From the NCBI GenBank assembly GCA_002245135.1, contig NGBS01000584.1:62001-126000 (forward strand): a stretch of DNA of 64,000 nt. Reading direction: 5' to 3'. The stretch's first letter is position 1. Each line of letters begins with the position of its first letter. The notes below the pieces were generated by a model. The model was not told the origin of the DNA, made no database searches, and worked only from the letters and a program-made list of their open reading frames with translations. The stretch comes from Proteromonas lacertae. Lineage: Eukaryota. The translations under genes were made by a program, and so were the position numbers. Shown piece by piece: positions 42,065-64,000 of the stretch.

Positions 42065-45000
42065 TTATTTTGCAACTACTTCCTGTAATTTTGTTAATGC
42101 TATTCCAAATGCTTGAACAAGAGACAAGGGATATTTATAATCCAATACCCACGATTGTTCTATTCTAAATAATCTCAAAACAGGAGCTGGAATATACAAT
42201 GGCTTTTTACTTACTTCTAAACTCCTCACTAATTTATTCACTTTTTCTCTTGCTGGTTTTGCTTTGCTTAAAAACAAAACTTCTTCATCAGCTTCAACAT
42301 CATTGTTTTCTTTTAAATTATACTTAATTGGAGGTAAAGATAAGCAAAATGATTTACAATCAGTATCATTCTGAGTTCCAGAGACATTTATTTCTTCAAA
42401 GAATGCTGAAAAATGGTCTTTCTCTGATTTTGATGATGTATAAGCGTCTTCAGGTGTTTCATAAGTGGGAATACAGACTTGGTAGTTATAGGCAGGATAA
42501 TGAGACTTCTCTTCTACTTTAATTACTGCTAAATCTTTATAAGTACCATCATCAGTTCCAATAATTTCTGGATCATCATTTATAAGCAAAAAGATTGAAC
42601 CATTTGGATGACAAATTAATGTTGCTAAATATCCTTCACTTTTTCTATTCTTTAAAACATCATCAATATCTAAAGACATTATTATTTTATCTCCATATTG
42701 TTTTGCATAACAGATTGTAATAAACTCTTCAGAAGCATCAGGTAAGAAAAAACCACATTCATAATACTATATAAATATAATTAATATATGTATACTGTTG
42801 ATAAAAGTTTAGTTTGTTTATTAATTTGTACTCTAACATAAGCATTTCCATTAGGTGATTGAAATGGACAAACAAAACAGAAGTTTTTAATTTCACTAAA
42901 CTCCAAACCTGGTAATGAAGACATATCATAATATAAAGAAACTTTTCCATTCAAATTCTTTACAGTATAACATGGTGGTAAATATATTCCAGTTCTCACA
43001 TAAAAACCTCTGAAATATCTTGAAATTGTTGTAACAGCTTGTATCTTTCTTTCTCTTAATCTTTGAGCTTCTTCTTTCCATCCTTTTATTGCTTTTGGTA
43101 ATAATCTAAACTTGAAACAATTGAATGCTTTAATTCTGTTTTCTTTACGTCTTGCTTCATTTTCTTTAGTTATTCTGCAGTATTCTTTAAACACAGGAGT
43201 GATTAATTTCTTATTACTATATTCTATAGCTATTTTCATTTGTTCTCTTCTAAATTCAACTACTCTAACCCATTCTTTGAAATGATTCTTCAGAGTTATT
43301 CCATTATGCTTCTTCAAACCAATATCTACCTTTTCTTGTCTTAAATCTATCAATTCCAAAATATAATCTTTCCATTCAGTAAATACTTTGATTTGACAGA
43401 GTGTATGATAATGTGCAACAGATTTTAATTCATGTTCATAACGAATACTGAGAAGATGTAATACATATTTACTCCATGAATCAAAATATAACTTTAACAG
43501 ATGTGTCTTATAATGTAAAACAGCTTTATGTTCTTTTTCTTTTATTTGATTTACATTTTCAATAGCATTCTTATTCCATGTTTTAATACATGATCTCAAT
43601 AATCTAATCTTATCATGTTTAACAGCAATCATGAAATGTTTCCATTCTTTCATCATTTTTGTAAGAATCTTTGAATTATAGTGTTTAATAGCTTTTTCAT
43701 TATTCACAATATTTGATTGATTCAATTTAGTAATATAATTTTTATATACAATAAAATTCTTTCGCAATAAATGTGATTTATAGAAGTTAATTGCTTTTTC
43801 TACTTTATTTGGATCTACAGCATTCTGTAATTGTGAATATCTCAACCATTTTGCCATTATTCTTCTTTGCATTGTTCTATGATAATGATTTTCTGCTTTA
43901 ACCATATTATTATGTACTTTTTGAATATATTTCTTCCATGTTCTATAAGTTAGTTTCATACCACTCTTAGAATAGAAATCAGATGCAATTTTGTTCTTTT
44001 CTGGATCTTCTTTGTTTTGTTCAATTGTATATTTATTCCACTCTCTAAGTATAATTTTCATTACTTGTTTTTCTCTAAATCCAGCTGCTTTATTCATCTT
44101 TTCAGTGTTCATTTTATTCATTTCATCTATATAGCCCAACCACATATTAATTGTCTTACCTTTCAGCTTTTTGTTATAAAAATCATCTGCTTTTCGATAC
44201 TTTTTAGCAACAACTTCTAATAACACTTTCAAATTATCATACCATAACTCAATTACTCTCTTCTTGATATATTTATTATTCAAATGAACAGCTTTCATGT
44301 GTTTTTTCCAATCCTTCATCATATCAATCAACAACCTCTTATTATAATGATTAATAGCTACATTTTCATCTTCTTTTTCTTTCAACAACACTTTCTGAAC
44401 ATAACTATACCAAGATTTATAACTTTTATAAACCAGTGTATGAATGTAGTGTTTATTTGCTTTTTCATCATCTATAACTTCTTTCTTTTGATCTTTGACA
44501 TTATTATACCACAATTTGAAATATTTCTTATTAATTCTATCATTATAATGAGAAATTGATGAATTCTCTTTGATTTTCATATCTTTAATTTCTTTTACAG
44601 ATTCTTTCCATTGTTTTATTGATTTCTTCATCAATTTTTCATTATAATGTTTGTCTGATTTTGAAGCATTGAGTTTTTCTTCATCAATCAATTTCTTCAC
44701 ATAATTATACCATTTTTCTATTATCTTCTTTTCTATTGTGTTTCTGTAATGACTATTTGATTTAATGAGATTCTGTTTCTTCTTTGATGTAGTGTCAAAA
44801 ATATACTTTGACCAAGCTTTAAATGTCTTTTTCAACAAATGAGATATACAGAATTTTCTGGATTTTTCTTCATTCTTTTGGTTGATATCTTTCTGTTGAA
44901 TATGTTTATTCTTCCAGAGATTGTAACTATCTTTCTTTAAGTTCTTATTATAACAATTATTTGCTTTAGCTAAATCTTTAGGATCAGTAGAATTAATGTA

Positions 45001-48000
45001 TTTTGTAAACTTGTTCCAATTCTTGATAGTTCTTTTCTTAATCTTTTTATTGTTGAATTTCATTGCTTTTTGATTATTCTTATGATATGTGTCGATAAAT
45101 TTCTTCCATTTCATATAGCATTTAGTTAATTCAGTATGTTTAAAATGATTTTCAGCTTTCTCAACTTCTTCAGGTATTTCAGTGTTTTGATCAATTGAAT
45201 ATTTGTTCCATCTTGTTATAATTCTCTTCAGGATTATTGGATTTCGATGATTTACTGCTTTATTATAATTATTTTTACAAACTTCATGATATTTCTTCCA
45301 TAGTTTATAATAATCTTTCAATACATTCTTATTGTAATTCTTATTTGCTTTAACAACATCTTTTGGATCAGTTGAATTGATATATTTTGTGCATTTATTC
45401 CAATATTTGATTGTTTTCTTCTTCAATTGTCGTTTATTAAACTTGTCTGACTTTTCAACATTCTTGTGATATACATCTATATATTTCTTCCACAATTTAT
45501 AATATTTTATTAATCCAACTCGCTTAAAGTGATTTTCAGCTTTATCAACTTCTTCAGGTATTTCAGTGTTTTGATCGATTGTGTATTTATTCCATTCTCT
45601 TAAGATTTTCTTTAATATTATTGGATTTCGATGATTAATTGCTTTGTTGGTATTATTATGATGTAATTCTACATTCTTCTTTAATAAATTCATTCCGATA
45701 TTCAACAGTCGTTTAGCATTGTGTAAATTACTCTTTTCTAGTTCTTCTTCAGTTGTTAGTTGAGATTTATAATATTTATTCCATTCTTTTATTACTCTCT
45801 TCTTCAAATTAATGTTGAATTTCTTATTCGCCTTATTCACATTATTGTGAAGTATTTCTATTAATTTCTTCCAATTATTTATTGAATGTTTCTTTAGATT
45901 CTTATTATAACAATTAGTAGATTTCTCAACATCCTTTTCATCTACTGAATTTATATATTTCGTATATTTACTCCATTTTGTTAAGATTCTCTTCATTAGT
46001 TTCTTTTCACTAAATACAACAGCTTTAATATTTTTATTTTCAAGATATTTCTTCCATAAAATTATGAATTTCTTGGATAATACACTAATATGATGTTTAT
46101 TAGCTATTGCTATATGTTGTCTAGTTATTATTGCTTCTTCTTTTGTGTATTTATTCCAATGTTTAACTATCTTCTTCTTCATTTTTCTATTATAGAATTT
46201 ATCTGATTTTTCAACATTCTTATGATATGTTTCTACACTCTTTTTAAATCCTTTCTTGAAATATTTTGTTAATTGTTTAATTCTGTAATGATTTTCAGCT
46301 TTCTCAACTTCTTCAGGTATTTCAGTGTTTTGATCAATTGTATATTTGTTCCATCTTGTTATAATTCTCTTCAGGATTATTGGATTTCGATGATTTACTG
46401 CTTTATTATAATTATTTTTATAAATTTCATGATATTTCTTCCACAACAAATAAGTCTTTTTTAGCAATGAATTATTATAATGTTTACTAGCAATGATTAC
46501 ATGTTCTACATCTAATTCTCTTTCGTTTTGAGTAAATTTGAACCAATTTCTATATTCTTTTATCAATAATTTCTTAGTATAACTCTTATCAGCAGTTTCA
46601 ACATTCTTGTGATATACATCTATATATTTCTTCCACAATTTATAATATTTTATTAATCCAACTCGCTTAAAATGATTTTCAGCTTTATCAACTTCTTCAG
46701 GTATTTCAGTATTTTGATCGATTGTGTATTTATTCCATTCTCTTAAGATTTTCTTTAATATTATTGGATTTCGATGATTAATTGCTTTGTTGGTATTATT
46801 ATGATGTAATTCTACATTCTTCTTTAATAAATTCATTCCGATATTCAACAGTCGTTTAGCATTGTGTAAATTACTCTTTTCTAGTTCTTCTTCAGTTGTT
46901 AGTTGAGATTTATAATATTTATTCCATTCTTTTATTACTCTCTTCTTCAAATTAATGTTGAATTTCTTATTCGCCTTATTCACATTATTGTGAAGTATTT
47001 CTATTAATTTCTTCCAATTATTTATTGAATGTGTCATAAGGTTGTTGTTATAGCAATTATTTGACTTTTCTATATCCATTTCATCTACTGAATTTATATA
47101 TTTCGTATATTTGCTCCATTTCTTCAATAATTTCTTCATCAGTTTCTTTTCACTAAATACAACAGCTTTTGTATTTTTATTTTCAAGATATTTCTTCCAT
47201 AAAATTATGAATTTCTTGGATAATACACTAATATGATGTTTATTAGCTATTGCTATATGTTGTCTAGTTATTATTGCTTCTTCTTTTGTGTATTTATTCC
47301 AATGTTTAACTATCTTCTTCTTCATTTTTCTATTATAGAATTTATCTGATTTTTCAACATTCTTATGATATATTTCAATATATTTCTTCCACAATTTATA
47401 ATATTTTATTAATCCAACTCGCTTAAAGTGATTTTCAGCTTTCTCTATTTCTTCAGGAATTTCAGTGTTTTGATCGATTGTGTATTTATTCCATTCTTTT
47501 AAGATTTTCTTTAATATTATTGGATTTCGATGATTAATTGCTTTATTGTTATTATTATGATATATTTCAATACATATCTTAAATAATTTCATTGCTTTAT
47601 TCAGAAGTTGTTTTCTATAATGCGTTTTACTCTTTTCTATTTCTTCTTCGGTTATTAGTTGAGATCTGTAATAGTCATACCATCTATTGATTACTTTCTT
47701 CTTCATATTACTAGTATATTTCTTATTCGCTTTATTTGTATTATTGTGAAGCATTACAATGAGTTTCTTCCAATTATTCATTGAATGTTTCTTAAGGTTG
47801 TTGTTATAGCAATTAGTAGATTTCTCAACATCCTTTTCATCAACTGAATTAATATATTTCGTATATTTACTCCATTTCTTCAATAATTTCTTCAATAATC
47901 TAATTCTTCTAAACTCTTGAGAGTTTTTAACTTTCTGTTGGAATTGTAAGTGATACTTTAGATAAATCTGGAAATGTTTTGATAATAATTTCCTATCATA

Positions 48001-50381
48001 ATGATCATAAGCTTTGATATAATCTTGAGTATGTACAAGTTGAGATAAATAGTATTTATACCATTTATGAATATACTTCCTTCTTAATTTCTTTTTATTA
48101 AATCTTATAGCTCTCTTCATATGTCTATGCATCTTCTTAGTGAAATATTTCCATTCTTTATAATATTTATAAGTTATTCTATGATTATAATGATTATATG
48201 CGATTATAGTATTCTCTTTTTCTTCTTTTACCACTCTCTTTACATATTTATACCAATTAGTAATAAACTTTGCAAGTGTCTTAATTATAAATTGTTTTTC
48301 AGCTTTTTCATTATTCATTTTTGTAATTGGAATAATCTTCTTCCATTGAGTAAAGAGTTTAGTTTTCATATGCTTTTGATAGTGTTTATCAGCTTTTTTA
48401 ATAGCAATTGGATGTAAAGCAAATTCATACCAAATCTTACAACTTTTATCTTTAAGAAATTTATCATAATAAATTTGAGCTCTTATATCTTTAGCTTGTA
48501 AATCATCAACATAATTAACCCATTTTCTAAATGATTTATTAGTGAGGGTTTTATTCCTATGTTCTCTAGCTTTTAGTTCATCCTTTTCATGTCTAATATT
48601 ACTTTCTAAAGCATAATGATACCAAGCAATTGATGTTTTCTTTGCTATTTTTTCATTATAATATCTGATTGATTTTGGAATTAATGATTGTAGATGATAA
48701 TAATAATTATACCATCTAATAAAATGTTTCTTTAACATCTTTAATCTATAATAAAGTTTTGCTCTTGATTCAAATGCTGGATTTGAATATGAATCTACAT
48801 CAACAACATGATTCTCACTCATATATTTCTTATATTTCATATACATTCTATCAAAATAATATATTTAATATATACTTTGAATGATTCTGTAATGTGACTA
48901 ATTTATCATAATAAGAAGCTTCAAAACATTCCAATTGTTTATAAAATTGATAATAACTTATACATCTTTCATAATATGGTCTATTATTTATTGTTGAAAT
49001 AAGACTTCTTCTTGGTCTTATTAATTTCTGCTGTAAATTCTCTAAGTTTCGAATATCACCTTCTAATTTCATTTTAGTCTTCTATATTTCGTTAGAAAAA
49101 TTAAAAGTTATACAGCATTTTTGTATTGTATTATTACAGAATCTGTTGATGATATTGAATTGTTTATTTTACTTAATTCATATTTTGCTGTTAATATATC
49201 CATTTCAACTTTTATTGAATTATTTGATGTGTTTTTATTAATGAAATTATTGATGTAATCTTTTCTATCTTTTATTAACCTACTATTATTATTAATAATT
49301 TGCTTTATTTCTATTGGAATTCTTTGATAATCTTTCATCAAATAATCAATCAAATCATCTGAAAATACAATAGTTTCACTATTTACTTTAATTATTGTAT
49401 GAACATAAGCTTGTATTGTCTGCATTGTTTTTATAATCAAATAATCCATTTAATACAGATGCTATTGAATCATCTGATAAAAAATAAGATTCTTTCTATT
49501 TATAATAATAATAATAATTAAAATGATTATACTGTGCAATTATTTACATATATATATTGTCTGATTATTAAATAAAAAGACAGTAAATCATTCTCTTCAT
49601 TAGAAGATAGAAATGATCTGAAATATCTGACTATTGGCTGATTATTACAGTTTTCAATTGAATATATCATATTATATCCTTTCTATAATTATAGTATATA
49701 TTATTGTTATAATATATATACATTTCTGACGAGTGAAATATCTAAACATTCTTTACATAATAAATAATAGACATGATATGGAAATGGATCTAATATTAAA
49801 TCATCTTTCTATTTCATTTTAATAATATATAAATATACTTTCATTGAAAAGCATGTTTCATAATCGTATCTTTTAGAAAATATATACAACACTTGCTTCA
49901 TTAAATCTTTGGTTGGAATAAGTGAGTATGAAGGAGGAGAAAAAAGTGAATCTGGAATAAAAGATAGGAATAAAGACTATTAATTCTTTATTAATAGGAT
50001 ATTACATACATATTTTTTGGAAATATCAGAAGTTAACCCAACAAGCCTTGGAGAAACAGGTGATTCTGGTCTTTCTATTTTTGGAAGTTGTTTAGGCCGT
50101 CTAGGTAATTGACCGAGGTGTGTAGATAATATATTATCCGTATCACTCGCAGTTCTGCTTATATCTCCTTTACGAACCAATTTTAATGGTTTAATACCTT
50201 CACTATCAGATCTTCTTAAAGCAGATGCTGAACGACATTTTTGAGGAGTTTGTATATAAAAATCGCCGAAATTTACTGATTTTGAGAGAGGAGTGACATC
50301 TGGATTAGACCTATTTGTAGAAATAGGTGCTAGTGATGGTGGTGTCCTTCTAAATGACGATATTCCCCTTCTTTCAGTCAT
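42065..50381 (-). CDS. Giant protein (about 2600 aa): Sfi1-like Trp repeats, IQ motif, C-terminal Tubby domain
   Basis: Seven GT-AG introns join the ORFs at 49980, 49108, 48851, 42781 and 42065 in frame. Periodic A...(H/Y)....L.K.....W repeats, ISRYFRGFYVR, and terminal LDYKYPLSLVQAFGIAL. Confidence 0.75.
45140..47370. repeat. About 1.14-kb near-identical intragenic tandem duplication
   Basis: CTTCCACAATTTATAATATTTTATTAATCCAACTCGCTTAAA occurs at about 45487 and 46630, with a third partial copy near 47387. Long identical peptide blocks recur in the ORF. Confidence 0.9.
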
Positions 50382-56303: not shown

Positions 56304-57083
56304 TTAAAAATAGGGAATAAATGAAAAATAGAACCACACTACCGTGTTCTTTGAAGGGTCGATGATTAAATAACATCTGTTGTTTAATTCTTCAGATATA
56401 AACAATTCTTCACTTTTTACTTGAAGCACCGCTGAAGCAACTGAAATTTCCTTTGTTTCTGGGTTTTTATGAACTCTTAACAAATCTTTGTATAATTTCA
56501 TTGTCATTTCCAAATATCCATTCCATTTATCATCAACTTGACATAATGAACCTCCTATAACTAGCCATGAAAATAAATGGTATATGAATTCATTCTTTTC
56601 TTCTTCTGAATAAAGATCTGCATTTTCTGAGTCTATATTACATAAATATTCTCTTAATAAATCTTGACATTGTACATTTTCATAATATTCATCCATACAA
56701 CTACGAATTGATCCATCTTCTGCTATTATAGGTGATTGTTTGAATCTATCAAAAAAAGACATTGACAATATATTGGTTGAGAGTTTATTTGTTGATATAT
56801 CATTTATCACTTCAGTTTTCTTCATTTGAGATTTATCTGCTACACGTATGTGTTCTTTAACAACATCAGATTTGAAAAAATCATTTGTAAAGTCACTTGC
56901 ATCAAAATCTCGATATTTACCTTTGAAATTAAACTTTAATATTTGAAATGTTTCATTAATACCCCTATAGAATTAGATTTTTCTTTAATACCACTGAGTT
57001 AGTTTTTCATTCGCATCAGCTTTCTTTAATGTGTTAACAGTGAATTTCTCATCAAAAGAAAAAGTGTATTTTGGATCAGCCAT
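56304..57083 (-). CDS. CFAP300: Cilia- and flagella-associated protein 300 (C11orf70/DUF4498)
   Basis: SMSFFDRF...DLLREYL..DSENADLYSEEEKNEFIYHLF..LVIGGSLCQ.DD...YL...KLYKDL..V.K. One intron near 56966-56991. Confidence 0.85.
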
Positions 57084-57159: not shown

Positions 57160-57849
57160 ATGGGTTTATTGACTATACTAAAGAAAATTAAACAGAAAGA
57201 GAAAGAAATGAGAATTTTACTACTGTATCTATAGATAAGTCATGCTATTGTATAGAGGGCTTGATAATGCCGGTAAAACAACACTGGTAAGAAAATTAAT
57301 GGGAGAAGATATTACTTACTATTTGCCCAACATTGGGATTTGATATTAAAACATTGGAATGCAATGGGTATGTAAAATTGTAATATTCATATTAGTTATA
57401 AACTAAATATATGGGATGTAGGTGGTCAAAAAACTATAAGATCATATTGGAGAAACTATTTTGAAGAAGTATACTCACGTTTGTTTTAATCCATATTTTA
57501 TAGACTGATGGAGTAATATGGGTGATTGATAGTGCGGATAAAAGAAGACTGGGTGATTGTGCAGAAGAGCTTAGAACAATTTTACAGCAAGAAAAACTTG
57601 CAGGTGCTTCACTCTTAATTTTTGCAAATAAGCAAGATCTACCAGGTTCTCTACCTTCAGATGAAATAGCTAAAGTATTGTTATTGACTTATTATATATA
57701 AATTCTAGATTTTGAATTTAGAATCTGACTCTTTTAAAGGTCATCACAATTGCGTATTAGCATGTAGTGCAGCAACTGGAGAAGGAATAGAAAAGGGAAT
57801 AGATTGGATCGTAGAAGATATTTGTAGTAGAATACTCTTATTAAATTAA
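57160..57849 (+). CDS. ARL2: ADP-ribosylation factor-like GTPase 2, with an apparent +1 frameshift at about 57316
   Basis: [70 protein letters not shown]. Four introns. Confidence 0.92.
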
Positions 57850-57972
57850 ATAATTCTAATACTATAACATATTTACTATTATTATTGAGTTAATTCATTT
57901 TGTGTTATATGTATATATATACATTATAAAATTGGAAAAAACAAACAAAATACATCTAAATTATAAATTAAT

Positions 57973-60900
57973 CTATTCTTCTTCTTCCTCACCATCATTT
58001 AGCTCAGTATTGTTAATAAAATTGTTATCTAAATTTATATTATCTTGCTCAGGTTGAGTAGCATATATATCAGTATTTCTAATTATTTGTTCTGAGTTGT
58101 AAGTACTATTGTTATTATTGTTGTTGTTATTGTTCTTTTCGTCTATTCTCGATAATTTATCAACAGTCTTATTAGATACATTAGATGCTCTTGTATTGGT
58201 TAGAAGGATTGGCTGATTGGGTTTACTTGAATTCCTATTGTATGGATGAATCTTATTATGTTTACTAACAGTTTTGTATAAAGGTTCAAACTGTCGAACT
58301 GATAGTCTTTTTCCTTTTTTCTTTCTCTTATATTCTTTATATATTTTATAAAACTTTGGAACGATAAATATTCCTGAACTTACTATGACAACTAGACAAA
58401 TACCTAAATTCTCTAAAACAAACTTAGCTTCTTGATTTGTTGTTAATACTATCTCTATAACCAAATATAGCAATTCTAATATAGCCAAAGCTGCTATTGT
58501 TGTTGATAATGATCTACTATCATTAAATTCATCCATTGTATTTCTTGTAGTCCATGAAAAGTAAATACCACAGGTAAAAAGAATAGTCAAAATTACACCT
58601 TGAAATAGCATATAATATATACTCTTATCACATTCTTGAATATAAACATTCTTTATAATTGTTGAATATTCTTTTGATAATGTCATTGAATAACCAGAAA
58701 ATGGATCTATCAAACCCCAAACAACTGAAATAAATGCACATAAAAATAATATCATGAATAACCTCAGGAAAACTTTCTCATTAGTTATTTTTTGTCTTGT
58801 CATTTTTTGATTTCTATATACTGCATGAATTCTCCATGTTCTAAGAATCAATATTCCAGAATAATTAATTAAACACAAGTAAAATAACCCCTGAGTAAAC
58901 AGACATCCTAAATCATTAGATGCAACTAAAGATGACACAATTGATGTTAAAATAACAAAAATACCTGAGACTAAAAAGTATATCAAAAACTGATAACTTG
59001 CAGCTTTTAACACTTTATATTTTCTAAACAGTATTAATACAGTTACTTCAAACACCAACAACACTGTGACTATAACACAAATTGATATGATTATAGATAT
59101 GATAGCTTGATTGATATGAAATATCTCTGTTGTAGGACCACAATCGCAATTTGAGTCATTTTTAAAATAAACTATTGGTGATAATGAAACTCTCAAATTT
59201 TTATTGTCTATTGGAACAGCTTTACCAGCAGAACTAATTTCTACAATCTCAAATACAGATTCAATATGATTTGTTATACTTCCATGTTTATTACCAGATG
59301 ATGTTGATATATCCACCAACTGAGTTCCTCTTCTAATATAATCAATTGTTGGCTTTGCATTATTGATATTGTCTATATTTGCTAATGATAAAGCTTGTTT
59401 TACACTTGCCAAATATATCACAAATGATGATTCTAATGCTGATAATGTTTCAGTTATAAATTCGATAGATCCGATTTTTATATCAATATAATTTTCAAAG
59501 TTTATCGTTGAAGGTAAAGATCTATCACTTGAGTAAGTTCTTGGGAAGAAATGACCTGTTAATTTAGTGATTATATCATAACCCATCAAATACTCTTCAA
59601 TATCATATACTACCTGTAAATGATGTATTGATGAGAATCCATTTTTGATATACAATTCTTCAAATAATAATAAATACTTATAATCTAACATATTAAATAT
59701 GATAGTTTTCATTCTTTCTGATGATAAAATCTTCATTACTCCATCAAATTTTTCTTCATAATTATCATCATTTACTATAGTAATATTCATTGGGACAATT
59801 TTTGTATTATTAACTAAGTAACTATATATATATTCAGAAATATCAATTGCATCAGCTTCATAACCTTTTGCAACACTCATCACTATAATTGCATACTTAT
59901 ATGATGTATTTTGAACTGCTTCTATAGATGGGATTAATACAGTTCTCAATGACGGTTTTATATGAACAATATTACTATCACATTCAGGGTACAGAGGATA
60001 GTTCAATGAATATAATAACTTGTGTGAATTACCTATCATTTTGGCTTTTATTAAACTGTAAGAATACTGTGATTGACATCCAAATAGAATTTGAATTTTA
60101 TCATTTTCAAATAATGAATTAACTAATGTAAAATCATAATCTGTATGTCTTATGGCTATAATTTTATAAGTCATCTTCGTTTCTAAAATTCCACCTTGAT
60201 TATTCTCATCTCGAATATAATTATCAAACAGTAATAACATCAAATGTGATAATCTTTTATTGGCTCTATCACAATAATCTAATATCAATGCAAACACTGA
60301 TGTACTATTCTCTGCAAAATCTTCTTGATAAATTGAAGTGTCATATGTTTTAGGTGATAATAATTCAGTGTGAGATACTACTTTGTATTTGAAATCTACA
60401 TCTTGGACTAAAACTTCATAGTATCTTCTTTGGGCTTTCAAATCTTTGCTTATGTATATAGAACCACTTGGAGTTGAATATTGATGATATGATATTGATT
60501 CAATTAATAGTGTAATATTACTTGGTGATAGAAATTTCTTTAAAGTTGAAACTAACATAGAAAATGATACATATGAATTCTCCATGAAACCAAATGTAGA
60601 ATTCAATTGAGGAAAATTACTATGCTTGAAATCTTCAAATTCTTTATGTTGAGGTGTAAGAAAATCATAACCTGTTTCATTTAATTCAGGCACATACGTT
60701 TCAATAGTTTTTACACCTTTATATATCCTGCTTATTTCATCTTTATTATTTCTGTCAATAAATGGAGTATAAACAATATATTTGTTATCATTTAATAACC
60801 CATTCTTATATATTGAATTCATGCCTAGAATATTTAAATCTCCATCAATACTATATATTATAAAACATGTTGATGAATTGGATGAATAACATGTAGAATT

Positions 60901-63900
60901 AAGTGATGCTATTACTTTATCAAAATCAACCCCTTCTTGTATTATATATGAATTCAGATTTATTGCAGTGTTAGATAAACGCAATGATAAATCATTATAT
61001 AGTGAATAAGAGAACAGTGATTCATCTACAATAATAAACAGATCATATGAATATTTAAGTATTTCACGATAATATATGTATGATAAGATAGTCACTGGCA
61101 ATCCAAAATCAATTACGTTGTTACTTTCAAATAATTGAAATGAAAAACCAATATTCATATATAATGTATCTTTATCAAAATACTCTTTTTGATTAAACTT
61201 ATAACCTCGAATATGAGTGAAAACTATCCTCACTTTTTCATACGACATATAGTCAAACGCTTCTTTCAGTCCTTCATCTGTTGAATAAGTATCTTTCACA
61301 ATTGGCTGTAAATAATATCCTAAATCAATTGAAGTTTTTATATTAAATTCAGCCATACATATTAGCAATGTTGATATTGAATAAATAGTAGAATCACTGT
61401 ACATTCCACTAACAGGATAAATAATCCCGACTTTAAAAACGGGAAGTGTAATTTCCCCATTAGCATTAGGCCAAGAACAAACAGTTACATTTATTACATT
61501 CATTTTACTATATATTGCCCAAGAATGTGCCTTTAAAGGTCCTAAAATATATTCAAATAATTCTCCTTTATCATTAATATAACTATATGTTAAAGACTTC
61601 ATTAATCTATTATTCTGTTGCATATATACTCTTCCTTCTACACTATCCACTTCTAAATTGTAAATCAAATCATAATATTGTGATGAAAAGATTGGCAATT
61701 GGAACTGGTTAAAAGATGCCCAAAAATGGAACATATTGTATAATGATGCTATCTTATCAGATAATTTGTTGGCTTTTATTGAATCTGCTATTGTTGTATA
61801 GGCATCATATAATTCATCTGAAACAACTGAAGATCTTATTTGATTTTTATCATCAATGAAAATATGAGGAGTTGAATCTATTACATAATAATAAGGAGTT
61901 TTTGTAATGAAAGAAGGTTGATTATAGAAACTAATATATCGAATTTTTCCATTTGCATTACCATCATCTGTATAATTATTAATACACTGTATAACTTTAT
62001 TAATGGCAATTTCATCATCATTATCCATAACTATATAAAATCCATCATTATAATCTCTAATATACTCCCTTAATTGATGATGTAGATTAGGATCTTCAAA
62101 TTTTATATCATTGATCAAATGAATTGCTAAAGAAATAACAACATTATGTATTTGGATATATTCATAATCATATTCTTTTGAATGCAATAATAACACATCC
62201 ATATTATTATCCACAGACATTAATTGTATAAATAAATTAGATAGTGAAACACCAGGATACAAAGCACTTGCATAAACATCTCTAATACATATTTCTTCAT
62301 CAAATTGGGAAATAATATTAATTGGTTTTGGATGATCTTTTGTAATGTCCAAAAACTTTTTAATACATTCATATGGAGCTGAAATGTACAACGCTAAATA
62401 AGCATCAGTTTCATTGAACATTTTTGCATAACTTTCACAAGCACCTATTGATGGTGGTTGTGTATATTTAAAGATAATTCTGTTATGATTAATACCACCA
62501 TTACCATTTATAGGAGCTAAAATACTATTAGCAATACCTAACAATTGAAAATCTACTTCATTTTGAGGATATACAACCATCATATAAGAATTACTATTCT
62601 GATATCCTTTCTCCATTATTGATTCATTTCTAAAGTCACAAATAAAATTAGGTGTAATAAACCAATCGTATGCATCTGGTGATGTTGGATTTCTGTAATT
62701 TGCAATTACATGTAATGAACCATCTTCAAAGTACTGAGCCAATTGAAATTTCTTTGACAACATGTTATTTGAAGCTAGTTTTATAATTCCTTCGTCAGTT
62801 TCAACTTCTTTATTGTAAATTTTACTTATTTTGATAATTTCACCATCGTCTGGATTAACATTTAATAATTCTTTGATGAATAAGAATATAATATAAACAT
62901 TTGACATCCTTGTTGTTACAGTTTTATACATGGTATATTCATAAACTGACTTTTTAAATTTATCATCTTCATCAGTTTGAAAATATGACCCAAACATGTA
63001 TATTCCTTCTCTTAATTCAACAGGAATAGTCTCAAATTGTGTTTCAGATATGTAATAAGTTAAAAACGGATATCTATCTCTTTTCATTTTTCTACTATAT
63101 AACTCATTTAACAACAACAATAAATAATCAGTACCTGGATGTATAAATAGCACCAATCCATTGTTTTTCTCCATTATATTTACTGTATTTATCATATCTA
63201 TTACAGTCGATCCATGCATATCAAATGATAAAAGAATAAGGGCTGTTCCTTCTATTGTCTTTCTGATAATAGAATGAGAGACATTTGAGCAATGTAATTT
63301 ACTATCATAGAATAAATACATATATTGATTAGTAGCAAAGAATGGAGAAAAATGAGAAAATGCATTTGAATAATATTGATTTGGTAATCCACCTGTAAAT
63401 ATTATATTCCTATAACAACTTTGACCACAAAAAGGTGAAGGATAGAAGAAATAGATAGGAGTATCTACTAATATCTTTTCTATTGCATAAAAACAATCTG
63501 GATGTGCACCTCCAATTATAAAATCATATTCACCAGAATTGATTATAGTCTTAGTTACTGATGTACATAGATTTGTATCTGATTTAGTATCAAATAATGT
63601 ATAGAATAATTCATAATCTTTGATTTCATTCTGCACAGTATAATATCCACTAATTGAAGCTAGAAATAATGGTAATTCTTGAACTCTTTGTTCACCTGAT
63701 AATGCATATATGAATGCTATTCCTACTTTCCTTTTATTGAAGTCTTTACTTTCTTTCTTTGGTTTATTTACCATTGAAAATGAAGATGAAGGAGTAAAAA
63801 AAGCATGCAATATTTCAGAATGGTAATAAGTTTCAAATTTTCCATTGTTGTAGTATAATAAATATACATAATGATTCAAATAATATCCTGAATTAATATA

Positions 63901-64000
63901 TACAGGACCACTTGGTAAGTTTATTGGTGTGATAAAAATATTATAATAGTAAGTATTCCTATTATTGTCACTGTCTATAGAGGCACGATAAAATAATAAA
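57973..64000 (-). CDS. Class C (GABA-B-like) 7TM receptor with tandem periplasmic-binding-protein type 1 (UrtA/AmiC-like) domains; 5' end beyond the window
   Basis: Frame is open to the window edge. 7TM motifs RKYKVLKAASYQF, LRTWRIHAVY, WGLIDP and FSWTTRNTMDEFNDSRSL. Ectodomain motif FFYPSPFCGQSCYRNIIFTGGLPNQ. Confidence 0.8.
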   Translation of the reverse strand, partial: LLFYRASIDSDNNRNTYYYNIFITPINLPSGPVYINSGYYLNHYVYLLYYNNGKFETYYHSEILHAFFTPSSSFSMVNKPKKESKDFNKRKVGIAFIYALSGEQRVQELPLFLASISGYYTVQNEIKDYELFYTLFDTKSDTNLCTSVTKTIINSGEYDFIIGGAHPDCFYAIEKILVDTPIYFFYPSPFCGQSCYRNIIFTGGLPNQYYSNAFSHFSPFFATNQYMYLFYDSKLHCSNVSHSIIRKTIEGTALILLSFDMHGSTVIDMINTVNIMEKNNGLVLFIHPGTDYLLLLLNELYSRKMKRDRYPFLTYYISETQFETIPVELREGIYMFGSYFQTDEDDKFKKSVYEYTMYKTVTTRMSNVYIIFLFIKELLNVNPDDGEIIKISKIYNKEVETDEGIIKLASNNMLSKKFQLAQYFEDGSLHVIANYRNPTSPDAYDWFITPNFICDFRNESIMEKGYQNSNSYMMVVYPQNEVDFQLLGIANSILAPINGNGGINHNRIIFKYTQPPSIGACESYAKMFNETDAYLALYISAPYECIKKFLDITKDHPKPINIISQFDEEICIRDVYASALYPGVSLSNLFIQLMSVDNNMDVLLLHSKEYDYEYIQIHNVVISLAIHLINDIKFEDPNLHHQLREYIRDYNDGFYIVMDNDDEIAINKVIQCINNYTDDGNANGKIRYISFYNQPSFITKTPYYYVIDSTPHIFIDDKNQIRSSVVSDELYDAYTTIADSIKANKLSDKIASLYNMFHFWASFNQFQLPIFSSQYYDLIYNLEVDSVEGRVYMQQNNRLMKSLTYSYINDKGELFEYILGPLKAHSWAIYSKMNVINVTVCSWPNANGEITLPVFKVGIIYPVSGMYSDSTIYSISTLLICMAEFNIKTSIDLGYYLQPIVKDTYSTDEGLKEAFDYMSYEKVRIVFTHIRGYKFNQKEYFDKDTLYMNIGFSFQLFESNNVIDFGLPVTILSYIYYREILKYSYDLFIIVDESLFSYSLYNDLSLRLSNTAINLNSYIIQEGVDFDKVIASLNSTCYSSNSSTCFIIYSIDGDLNILGMNSIYKNGLLNDNKYIVYTPFIDRNNKDEISRIYKGVKTIETYVPELNETGYDFLTPQHKEFEDFKHSNFPQLNSTFGFMENSYVSFSMLVSTLKKFLSPSNITLLIESISYHQYSTPSGSIYISKDLKAQRRYYEVLVQDVDFKYKVVSHTELLSPKTYDTSIYQEDFAENSTSVFALILDYCDRANKRLSHLMLLLFDNYIRDENNQGGILETKMTYKIIAIRHTDYDFTLVNSLFENDKIQILFGCQSQYSYSLIKAKMIGNSHKLLYSLNYPLYPECDSNIVHIKPSLRTVLIPSIEAVQNTSYKYAIIVMSVAKGYEADAIDISEYIYSYLVNNTKIVPMNITIVNDDNYEEKFDGVMKILSSERMKTIIFNMLDYKYLLLFEELYIKNGFSSIHHLQVVYDIEEYLMGYDIITKLTGHFFPRTYSSDRSLPSTINFENYIDIKIGSIEFITETLSALESSFVIYLASVKQALSLANIDNINNAKPTIDYIRRGTQLVDISTSSGNKHGSITNHIESVFEIVEISSAGKAVPIDNKNLRVSLSPIVYFKNDSNCDCGPTTEIFHINQAIISIIISICVIVTVLLVFEVTVLILFRKYKVLKAASYQFLIYFLVSGIFVILTSIVSSLVASNDLGCLFTQGLFYLCLINYSGILILRTWRIHAVYRNQKMTRQKITNEKVFLRLFMILFLCAFISVVWGLIDPFSGYSMTLSKEYSTIIKNVYIQECDKSIYYMLFQGVILTILFTCGIYFSWTTRNTMDEFNDSRSLSTTIAALAILELLYLVIEIVLTTNQEAKFVLENLGICLVVIVSSGIFIVPKFYKIYKEYKRKKKGKRLSVRQFEPLYKTVSKHNKIHPYNRNSSKPNQPILLTNTRASNVSNKTVDKLSRIDEKNNNNNNNNNSTYNSEQIIRNTDIYATQPEQDNINLDNNFINNTELNDGEEEEE

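Follow-up and report, generated by a model that had tools for sequence, protein, structure and literature searches.

The signalling mechanics of class C GPCRs (G-protein-coupled receptors) are understood for one Venus-flytrap domain per subunit, and two flytraps in tandem are carried by BvgS of Bordetella. Two tandem flytraps are also described, in the accessible part of the source, for the receptor adenylate cyclases of trypanosomes (PMC6027212). In non-metazoans, bacterial solute-binding domains have been placed on the class C seven-transmembrane domain (7tm_3), as far as the accessible sections of five reports go (PMC3251606, PMC5168858, PMC3727952, PMC3971589, PMC12716839), with Bmp, OpuAC, SBP_bac_1, PBP_like_2, TctC and Peripla_BP as the known ectodomains; the available portion of the PMC3971589 supplement lists the architecture /Peripla_BP//7tm_3/. 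Here we analyse a stretch of 64,000 nucleotides from Proteromonas lacertae (assembly GCA_002245135.1, contig NGBS01000584.1, positions 62,001 to 126,000; 'the window' below means this whole stretch), which encodes on its minus strand a giant receptor, P0001, whose gene runs past the window edge. The evidence supports a series of tandem type I periplasmic-binding domains, derived from the bacterial urea-binding protein UrtA, on top of a class C-type seven-transmembrane domain (7TM). The protein has this architecture, its modelled units have the UrtA fold, its units have lost the urea pocket, and they group with the units at the same position in relatives. We lean slightly towards reading it as a GABA-B-like receptor in which a chain of clamshells without a urea pocket responds to a non-urea ligand, likely signalling through G proteins.

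Domain architecture of the window receptor

The receptor frame is stop-free and 5'-open, and was resolved into the following parts, units 1 to 4 being numbered towards the membrane.

57973..63999, minus strand: 5'-open receptor frame of 2,008 amino acids, P0001 (open reading frame; homology to the relative P0002)
63751..63999, minus strand: C-terminal part of UrtA-like unit 5 counted from the membrane (leave-out profile 21 bits versus 4.1 shuffled; P0002 71-140, E 8e-9)
62608..63750, minus strand: unit 1, fourth from the membrane and closest to UrtA (PF13433 E 1e-21; PDB 7S6F E 4e-17; Cys195 and Cys454)
61459..62607, minus strand: unit 2, third from the membrane (no Pfam match; leave-out profile 41 bits; Cys571 and Cys841)
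60310..61458, minus strand: unit 3, second from the membrane (PF13433 E 1e-7; model versus 8TG1 Z 38.1; cysteine pair absent)
59131..60309, minus strand: unit 4, membrane-proximal (model versus UrtA 8HIC Z 38.9; Cys1340 and Cys1618)
59107..59148, minus strand: short stalk from the last UrtA cysteine to transmembrane helix 1 (TM1) (gapless in 22 relatives, alignment A8; no NCD3G match)
58354..59106, minus strand: 7tm_3 domain, nearest solved relative GABA-B2 (Pfam; Cys 1699 and 1790, RTWRIH, TRN..NDS, VPK)
57976..58353, minus strand: cytoplasmic tail, a basic stretch followed by Asn-rich low complexity and an acidic end (sequence)

Across the whole protein, Pfam recognized Peripla_BP_5 as four stretches (E 2.5e-32). 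When the units were scanned in isolation, PF13433 matched unit 4 (E 0.006) in addition to units 1 and 3 (E 1e-21 and 1e-7), and unit 2 alone had no Pfam match. A unit profile built from relatives, excluding the 13 closest ones and the window protein itself, gave 160, 41, 61 and 71 bits for units 1 to 4 and 21 bits for the edge fragment, and shuffled sequences (100 per unit or fragment) reached at most 6.2 bits. Because the four full units and the tail of a fifth score far above the shuffles, the original prediction, made from the DNA letters without database searches, was correct in counting at least five units. It had also placed the unit starts correctly (KVGI at 63729, SYMMVVY at 62589, KVGI at 61434 and SVFALILD at 60300, with LPSGPVY at 63918), and the motif remnants that it listed are present, although each only in some units (unit 1 has FYP and PNQ, unit 2 has GGI, and unit 4 has both GGI and FGC). 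The window units are mutually 20-25% identical, yet 40-52% identical to the same-position units of P0002, unit 4 being the best kept at 52%.

The predicted 7tm_3 C-terminus was borne out by a full-length Pfam match at residues 1632-1882 (profile positions 6-251 of 251, 79.5 bits versus a cut-off of 33.5, E 4e-22), by the alignment to GABA-B2, which is the closest among solved structures (E 5e-10), and by GABA-B-type motifs. Class C receptors have cytoplasmic motifs with known roles, namely a basic residue in TM3, an acidic residue at the start of TM6 and PK in TM7. The cytoplasmic face shared with GABA-B2 comprises RTWRIHAVYRNQKM versus KTWRVHAIFKNVKM, TRN..NDS and VPK, in intracellular loops 2 and 3 (ICL2, ICL3) and TM7, respectively; in the same alignment both cysteines of TM3 and extracellular loop 2 (ECL2) are kept, and Lys is replaced by Arg in RTWR. 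As for the seven hydrophobic helices claimed earlier, six appear as distinct hydropathy peaks, and TM3 is visible only through Pfam and the GABA-B2 alignment. The stalk spans ~13 residues from the last UrtA cysteine to TM1 and its length is constant in the 22 aligned relatives. Neither ANF_receptor nor NCD3G matched the window protein at E<=1, and membership of the mGluR/CaSR/T1R subfamily was rejected on this absence and on the ~13-residue stalk. Assignment to the GABA-B subfamily by ectodomain was likewise rejected: the stalk is short, but at least five UrtA-type units take the place of the single ANF flytrap. By sequence and fold the window protein thus has the features of a class C GPCR, of which G-protein coupling and dimerisation are putative.

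UrtA fold of the units and their head-to-tail junctions

A search of PDB sequences with unit 1 returned four matches at E<=1, all of them urea-binding proteins (best 7S6F, E 4e-17), and AmiC was not among them. The units nevertheless fall short of the family threshold: unit 1 scored 62.7 bits against the TIGR03407 cut-off of 492.75, units 2-4 did not match TIGR03407, and identity to a Novosphingobium UrtA is 11-18%. AlphaFold modelling of units 2-4 with TM1 from 23 aligned sequences gave a mean local confidence (pLDDT) of 84 and a global score (pTM) of 0.81, with one beta-alpha pattern repeated in units 2, 3 and 4; a run from the single sequence reached a pLDDT of only 33. Modelled unit 4 superposed on UrtA 8HIC up to the UrtA C-terminus (Z 38.9, root-mean-square deviation 3.1 over 372 residues) and unit 3 on the urea-binding protein 8TG1 (Z 38.1, deviation 2.6 over 353 residues), confirming the type 1 periplasmic-binding fold foreseen for the units. 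Structure-search matches were listed for units 3 and 4, unit 2 being supported by the model and the profile and unit 1 by sequence. As modelled, the ectodomain is of the type I periplasmic-binding kind that marks class C GPCRs. Urea-binding proteins ranked first (Z 38-39), ahead of AmiC (35.0) and LivK (34.2). The earlier description of the units as UrtA/AmiC-like therefore holds for UrtA; a closer affinity to AmiC was rejected, given its Z of 35 and its absence from the four sequence matches.

The C-termini of the units carry the second mark of UrtA. The nearest bacterial UrtAs to the units of the relative P0221 (55-57% identity, mostly cyanobacterial) end in a Cys-Asp-Trp tail of ~14 residues, and the segments FICDF, TVCSW and NCDCG, originally described as Cys-containing linkers, align to this C-terminal motif of UrtA itself. 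They are the ends of the UrtA domains rather than linkers, and the model of unit 4 tracks UrtA to its last residues. Thus both the UrtA fold and the Cys-Asp-Trp tail are found in the window protein, with the tail cysteine in units 1, 2 and 4. From the tail cysteine to the next first strand there are 16-20 residues in 29 of the 31 junctions detected (seven proteins), so that an array junction is as long as a bacterial tail plus a mature start. With the tail itself serving as the junction, at this spacing, the units are joined end to end and hardly any linker has been added between them.

The tail cysteine co-occurs with a cysteine in the GxEC loop: 94 of 113 units have both, nine have neither and ten have one only (Fisher p 5e-7, the rows being related to each other and one of the 'single' cases being a miscall of window unit 3, which lacks both). 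A disulfide between the tail and the loop likely explains this co-occurrence. The loop cysteine sits four residues past E146; a bond between the two cysteines would therefore tether the strand that leads into the following unit to the ligand loop.

A family of multi-unit receptors

A HMMER profile of units 1/3, unit 4 and the 7TM was run against 1.84 billion representatives and gave 474 matches. Among the 150 matches listed, all scanned with the unit profile, 18 have two to nine full units before a class C 7TM, two of these 18 scoring below the Pfam 7tm_3 cut-off, and lengths reach 3,745 amino acids. The first 20 clusters looked up were nameless and came from Logan, except for one short ENA member. 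The closest relatives of the window protein have up to seven or eight units, most of them beginning inside a unit, and for this reason the window gene probably extends 4-6 kb beyond the window; a full-length protein of 7-9 units and about 3,400-3,900 amino acids is predicted. In the ESM Atlas, which was covered through its large clusters, all matches were clusters of the ordinary class C kind, none of them poly-unit.

A search seeded with P0014, one of the multi-unit relatives, added P0221 (ENA, 4,080 amino acids), P0222 (JGI, 3,909 amino acids; its database name is urea-binding protein only) and P0223 (EukProt). P0221 and P0222 are two more multi-unit receptors with a 7TM beyond the 18; by eye, both start with a hydrophobic stretch, and P0014, P0221 and P0222 have nine units each. 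In P0221, an insertion of ~150 residues (residues 3013-3161) splits the second unit from the membrane, so that Pfam counts ten stretches, and the stalk is Cys-rich, unlike that of other family members. P0223, labelled Pfiesteria piscicida, has four UrtA units, one of which retains the complete urea pocket; it also bears ephrin-like Cys repeats and a C-terminal region that is hydrophobic and not 7tm_3; the UrtA module is here used on what is predicted to be another type of receptor.

Scans of prokaryotic genomes, metagenomes and viral collections (421, 319 and 6 confirmed loci, of which 80, 80 and 6 were retained) gave single-unit UrtA-like genes, and the 167 prokaryotic, metagenomic and viral loci include neither an array of at least three units nor a 7TM. 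Several bacterial loci fuse a UrtA-like domain to other modules: L032:1570-4503 and L048:1489-4104 to HisKA and HATPase, and L037:1411-4164 to HAMP and SpoIIE. These three are candidate urea-sensing signalling proteins of the two-component type. Two bacterial proteins of ~1,520 amino acids (L076:1342-5931 and L123:564-5117) carry a UrtA-like unit at each end, with HEAT repeats between the two in L076. In the viral collection, six contigs (L162-L167, of which five bear the label GVMAG) have frames of 465-541 amino acids, each with one UrtA-like domain that is 26-41% identical to P0221 units.

Loss of the urea pocket in the window lineage

In Prochlorococcus UrtA, mutation of W120, S122, Q144, Y190 or N246 abolishes or strongly lowers urea binding, according to the accessible part of the report (PMC10392092), which gives a Kd of 141 nM for UrtA and urea. 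Window units 1-4 keep 0, 1, 0 and 0 of these five contacts, on which two alignment methods agree, and unit 1 aligned directly with 7S6F and 8HIC likewise shows the contacts gone. Counting units of at least 230 amino acids, none of the 84 units of the AT-rich clade to which the window protein belongs keeps more than two contacts, and the distal units (fifth to eighth) of its closest relatives also keep at most two. In the compositionally balanced relatives P0014, P0221, P0222 and P0223, 21 of 30 units retain all five. The membrane-proximal unit there is down to 1, 0 and 0 contacts in P0014, P0221 and P0222, respectively. Urea binding thus appears to be lost in the AT-rich clade, and no new shared pocket seems to have taken over.

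These counts make urea or amide avidity sensing, the function originally predicted, unlikely for the window protein. That it is a multivalent, avidity-tuned sensor of urea or short amides is to our mind distinctly improbable: UrtA is its closest family in both sequence and fold, relatives have a complete pocket and N-terminal units beyond the window could in principle be intact, but the four units keep 0, 1, 0 and 0 essential contacts by both alignment methods, and the distal units of the closest relatives do no better than two. The caveat attached to that prediction, that some units may be non-binding, holds for urea in all of the window units. The urea/amide hypothesis would instead fit the distant nine-unit relatives, which are predicted urea sensors with five to eight complete urea sites each.

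Evolutionary history of the array

AT-rich units cluster by distance from the membrane and not by protein (FastTree, many long branches), and all 19 membrane-proximal AT-rich units fall in one group (FastTree 95). Position labels on the unit tree require 12 changes, where 8 is the least possible and shuffled labels average 78. This grouping by chain position, together with the higher identity to P0002 counterparts, indicates an old array whose order has become fixed. Nineteen units with an intact pocket, from P0014, P0221 and P0222, fall into one clade (99/92) in which the three proteins are interleaved. In an unrooted LG+G4 tree with 29 of 82 bacterial units, a sample biased by the query, the intact eukaryotic units lie on the same side of a 100/99 branch as the UrtAs with the Cys-Asp-Trp tail (cyanobacterial and marine), with the exception of one tail-bearing Planctomycete row across that branch. 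A careful tree of the 7TM (42 of 148 rows) recovered the AT-rich 7TMs as one clade (95/90) and P0014 with P0222 as another (99/98). The 7TM of P0221 was placed among single-flytrap receptors (99/87), although the approximately unbiased test did not reject a tree with it constrained to the family (p 0.06); this placement suggests that the array may have been captured by a second 7TM in P0221. A common array of AT-rich and intact units would rest on the shared tail, the junction spacing and a stalk motif, the last found in 12 of 23 versus 2 of 111 cases (a motif picked after seeing the data).

With confidence somewhat short of even, we propose that this giant class C family derives from one captured UrtA, that its nine-unit ancestor was a urea GPCR and that the window lineage is a repertoire with rewritten clefts. 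One bacterial UrtA with the Cys-Asp-Trp tail would have been acquired, amplified to ~9 units and fused to a 7TM, with whole-receptor duplication and divergence of the clefts following in the AT-rich protist lineage. Because the paralogues differ in their cleft residues, they likely make up a repertoire in which different receptors serve different solutes or surfaces.

Proposed mechanism and its alternatives

For the window protein itself, the slightly favoured reading as a receptor for a non-urea ligand would work as follows. The tail of each unit, likely disulfide-pinned to the loop that bears the ligand contacts in UrtA, would lead without a break into the strand with which the next unit begins and make the chain a semi-rigid rod. 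A non-urea ligand would shift this chain, and the change would be relayed through the pocket-less proximal unit and the short stalk to the 7TM; we infer a mechanical relay from the predicted tether between the ligand loop and the strand that enters the following unit. The membrane-proximal unit, pocket-less even in the urea-intact relatives, would be the likely transducer, on a GABA-B-like stalk and ECL2 hairpin.

Several points weigh against the proposals made here for the window protein and its family. The eight pocket columns are 0.13-0.16 conserved versus an average of 0.18-0.23 among same-position AT-rich units (the lower value being significant at 0.02 for the proximal unit only, under one alignment), and such low conservation fits lost binding as well as diversified binding. 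The disulfide is read from sequence, and the rigidity of the chain from sequence and pTM. The donor group is provisional, the bacterial sample having been picked by patterns from the eukaryotic proteins; the union of the AT-rich and P0014/P0222 7TMs is supported at 79/51 only; and the trees leave a common array of AT-rich and intact units unsettled, the AT-rich units forming long branches.

The conservation pattern bears equally on an alternative that we consider unlikely, if worth weighing, in which no cleft binds a ligand and the protein serves as a structural stalk (for adhesion, for spacing or to transmit force) or, like GABA-B2, as the ligand-blind member of a heterodimer that couples to the G protein. 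Its case consists of pocket columns at or under background, the most conserved positions in AT-rich units being scaffold Gly, Asn, Phe and Cys, of the best solved match of the 7TM, which is GABA-B2, and of the 22 N-x-S/T sequons in the protein. Yet each chain position keeps its own identity across very divergent paralogues, which would be needless in a plain spacer, both lobes are complete in the modelled units, and the 84 AT-rich units include no urea-binding partner.

Integrity of the frame and genomic context

The receptor lies in the DNA of an AT-rich eukaryote (GC 22-32%). The claim of a single uninterrupted frame of more than 6 kb was confirmed: under the standard code, with which the window frames were translated, 2,008 codons are free of stops, a run whose chance of occurrence at the base composition of the window is ~1e-80, which rules out a random origin. 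Homology to P0002 reaches back to residue 3 of the frame, and GC content at each of the three codon positions (at the third, GC3, 0.15-0.23) stays even from unit to unit and into the 7TM. The search of the frame for in-frame GT-AG stretches of 21-120 nucleotides that are very AT-rich gave none. That the frame was considered exceptional for lacking introns was only partly justified, as other stop-free frames of 2,027, 1,439 and 1,051 codons exist in the window, although small neighbours such as the ARL2-like gene do have GT-AG candidates of ~31-35 nucleotides.

Among the neighbours of the receptor in the window are CFAP300, AMPK-beta, a class II tRNA synthetase, Sfi1 and La. Given what CFAP300 and Sfi1 are known to do, their presence points to a protist with flagella. 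The following lie closest or drew attention by themselves.

57160-57850, plus strand: small GTPase gene that, from its motifs, we take to be ARL2-like, with GT-AG intron candidates of 31-35 nucleotides and an apparent one-base frame break near 57315 (broken gene or assembly indel)
56304-57080, minus strand: CFAP300, a cilia/flagella protein, head to head with the ARL2-like gene
42781-48864, minus strand: open frame of 2,027 codons with Sfi1 centrin-binding repeats and near-identical internal blocks

The frame break in the ARL2-like gene implies that the assembly may contain indel errors, and would favour an artefact or dead gene, be it through contig misjoining, contaminating bacterial DNA or pseudogene decay. 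We regard this as highly improbable in view of the 2,008 open codons, the uniform GC and GC3 over units and 7TM, the same collinear architecture in many independent records, the eukaryotic neighbour genes and the absence of arrays of three or more units or a 7TM from all 167 prokaryotic, metagenomic and viral loci. The motif TGTTTGTT, which we take to be the 3'-end signal of Blastocystis, occurs 8 times in the window versus 6.7 expected, and no lineage was inferred from it.

Comparison with known systems

Our literature searches, which covered few subscription journals, turned up no GPCR with a UrtA ectodomain, no 5-9 serial flytraps on a GPCR, no eukaryotic urea-sensing GPCR and no paper pairing 7tm_3 with Peripla_BP_5 or UrtA with a GPCR; PF13433 and the phrases 'tandem' or 'multiple' flytrap or VFT were absent among the matches listed, and the accessible text of PMC12965686, PMC8687355 and PMC5447177 does not describe the architecture. 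Bacterial binding domains on 7tm_3 are known, and a UrtA ectodomain and 5-9 flytraps in series are undescribed in the literature searched. Such a series poses the question of how binding far from the membrane reaches the 7TM, and whether it serves cooperativity or ligand counting. If the proposed history is true, the ancestral nine-unit form had five to eight intact urea sites mechanically chained to a pocket-less transducer. The nine-unit relatives are direct candidates for a eukaryotic urea-sensing GPCR, with the ligand predicted from a fully conserved pocket. Within one data set, the family would hold a whole trajectory, from bacterial transporter subunit through tandem array to receptor, and on to a fold that persists after its first pocket is gone.

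Among the known systems, GABA-B (7C7Q, 6UO8) resembles the window receptor in its 7tm_3 domain, its ICL2, ICL3 and TM7 motifs, its long ECL2 and the lack of a nine-cysteine domain, but it has a single ANF-type flytrap where the window receptor has at least five UrtA-type units. These units share with UrtA (TIGR03407; 8HIC, 7S6E, 7S6F, 8TG1) the fold, the GxEC loop cysteine and the Cys-Asp-Trp tail, and with AmiC (1PEA) the fold, at Z 35; whereas UrtA and AmiC are single soluble transporter subunits, the window units are chained and lack the urea pocket. Trypanosome cyclases and BvgS likewise place tandem clamshells outside a signalling domain, but have two units, a cyclase or kinase output and no 7TM. 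The bacterial UrtA-domain kinases and phosphatases (L032, L048 and L037) also use a UrtA-like signalling input, with one unit each and a two-component output, the two units of L076 and L123 being separated. Finally, the available text of the reports on non-metazoan class C receptors mentions neither UrtA nor tandem arrays and gives 1,600-1,667 amino acids for the longest N-termini, whereas the ectodomains of the present family extend to about 3,600 amino acids and up to nine units.

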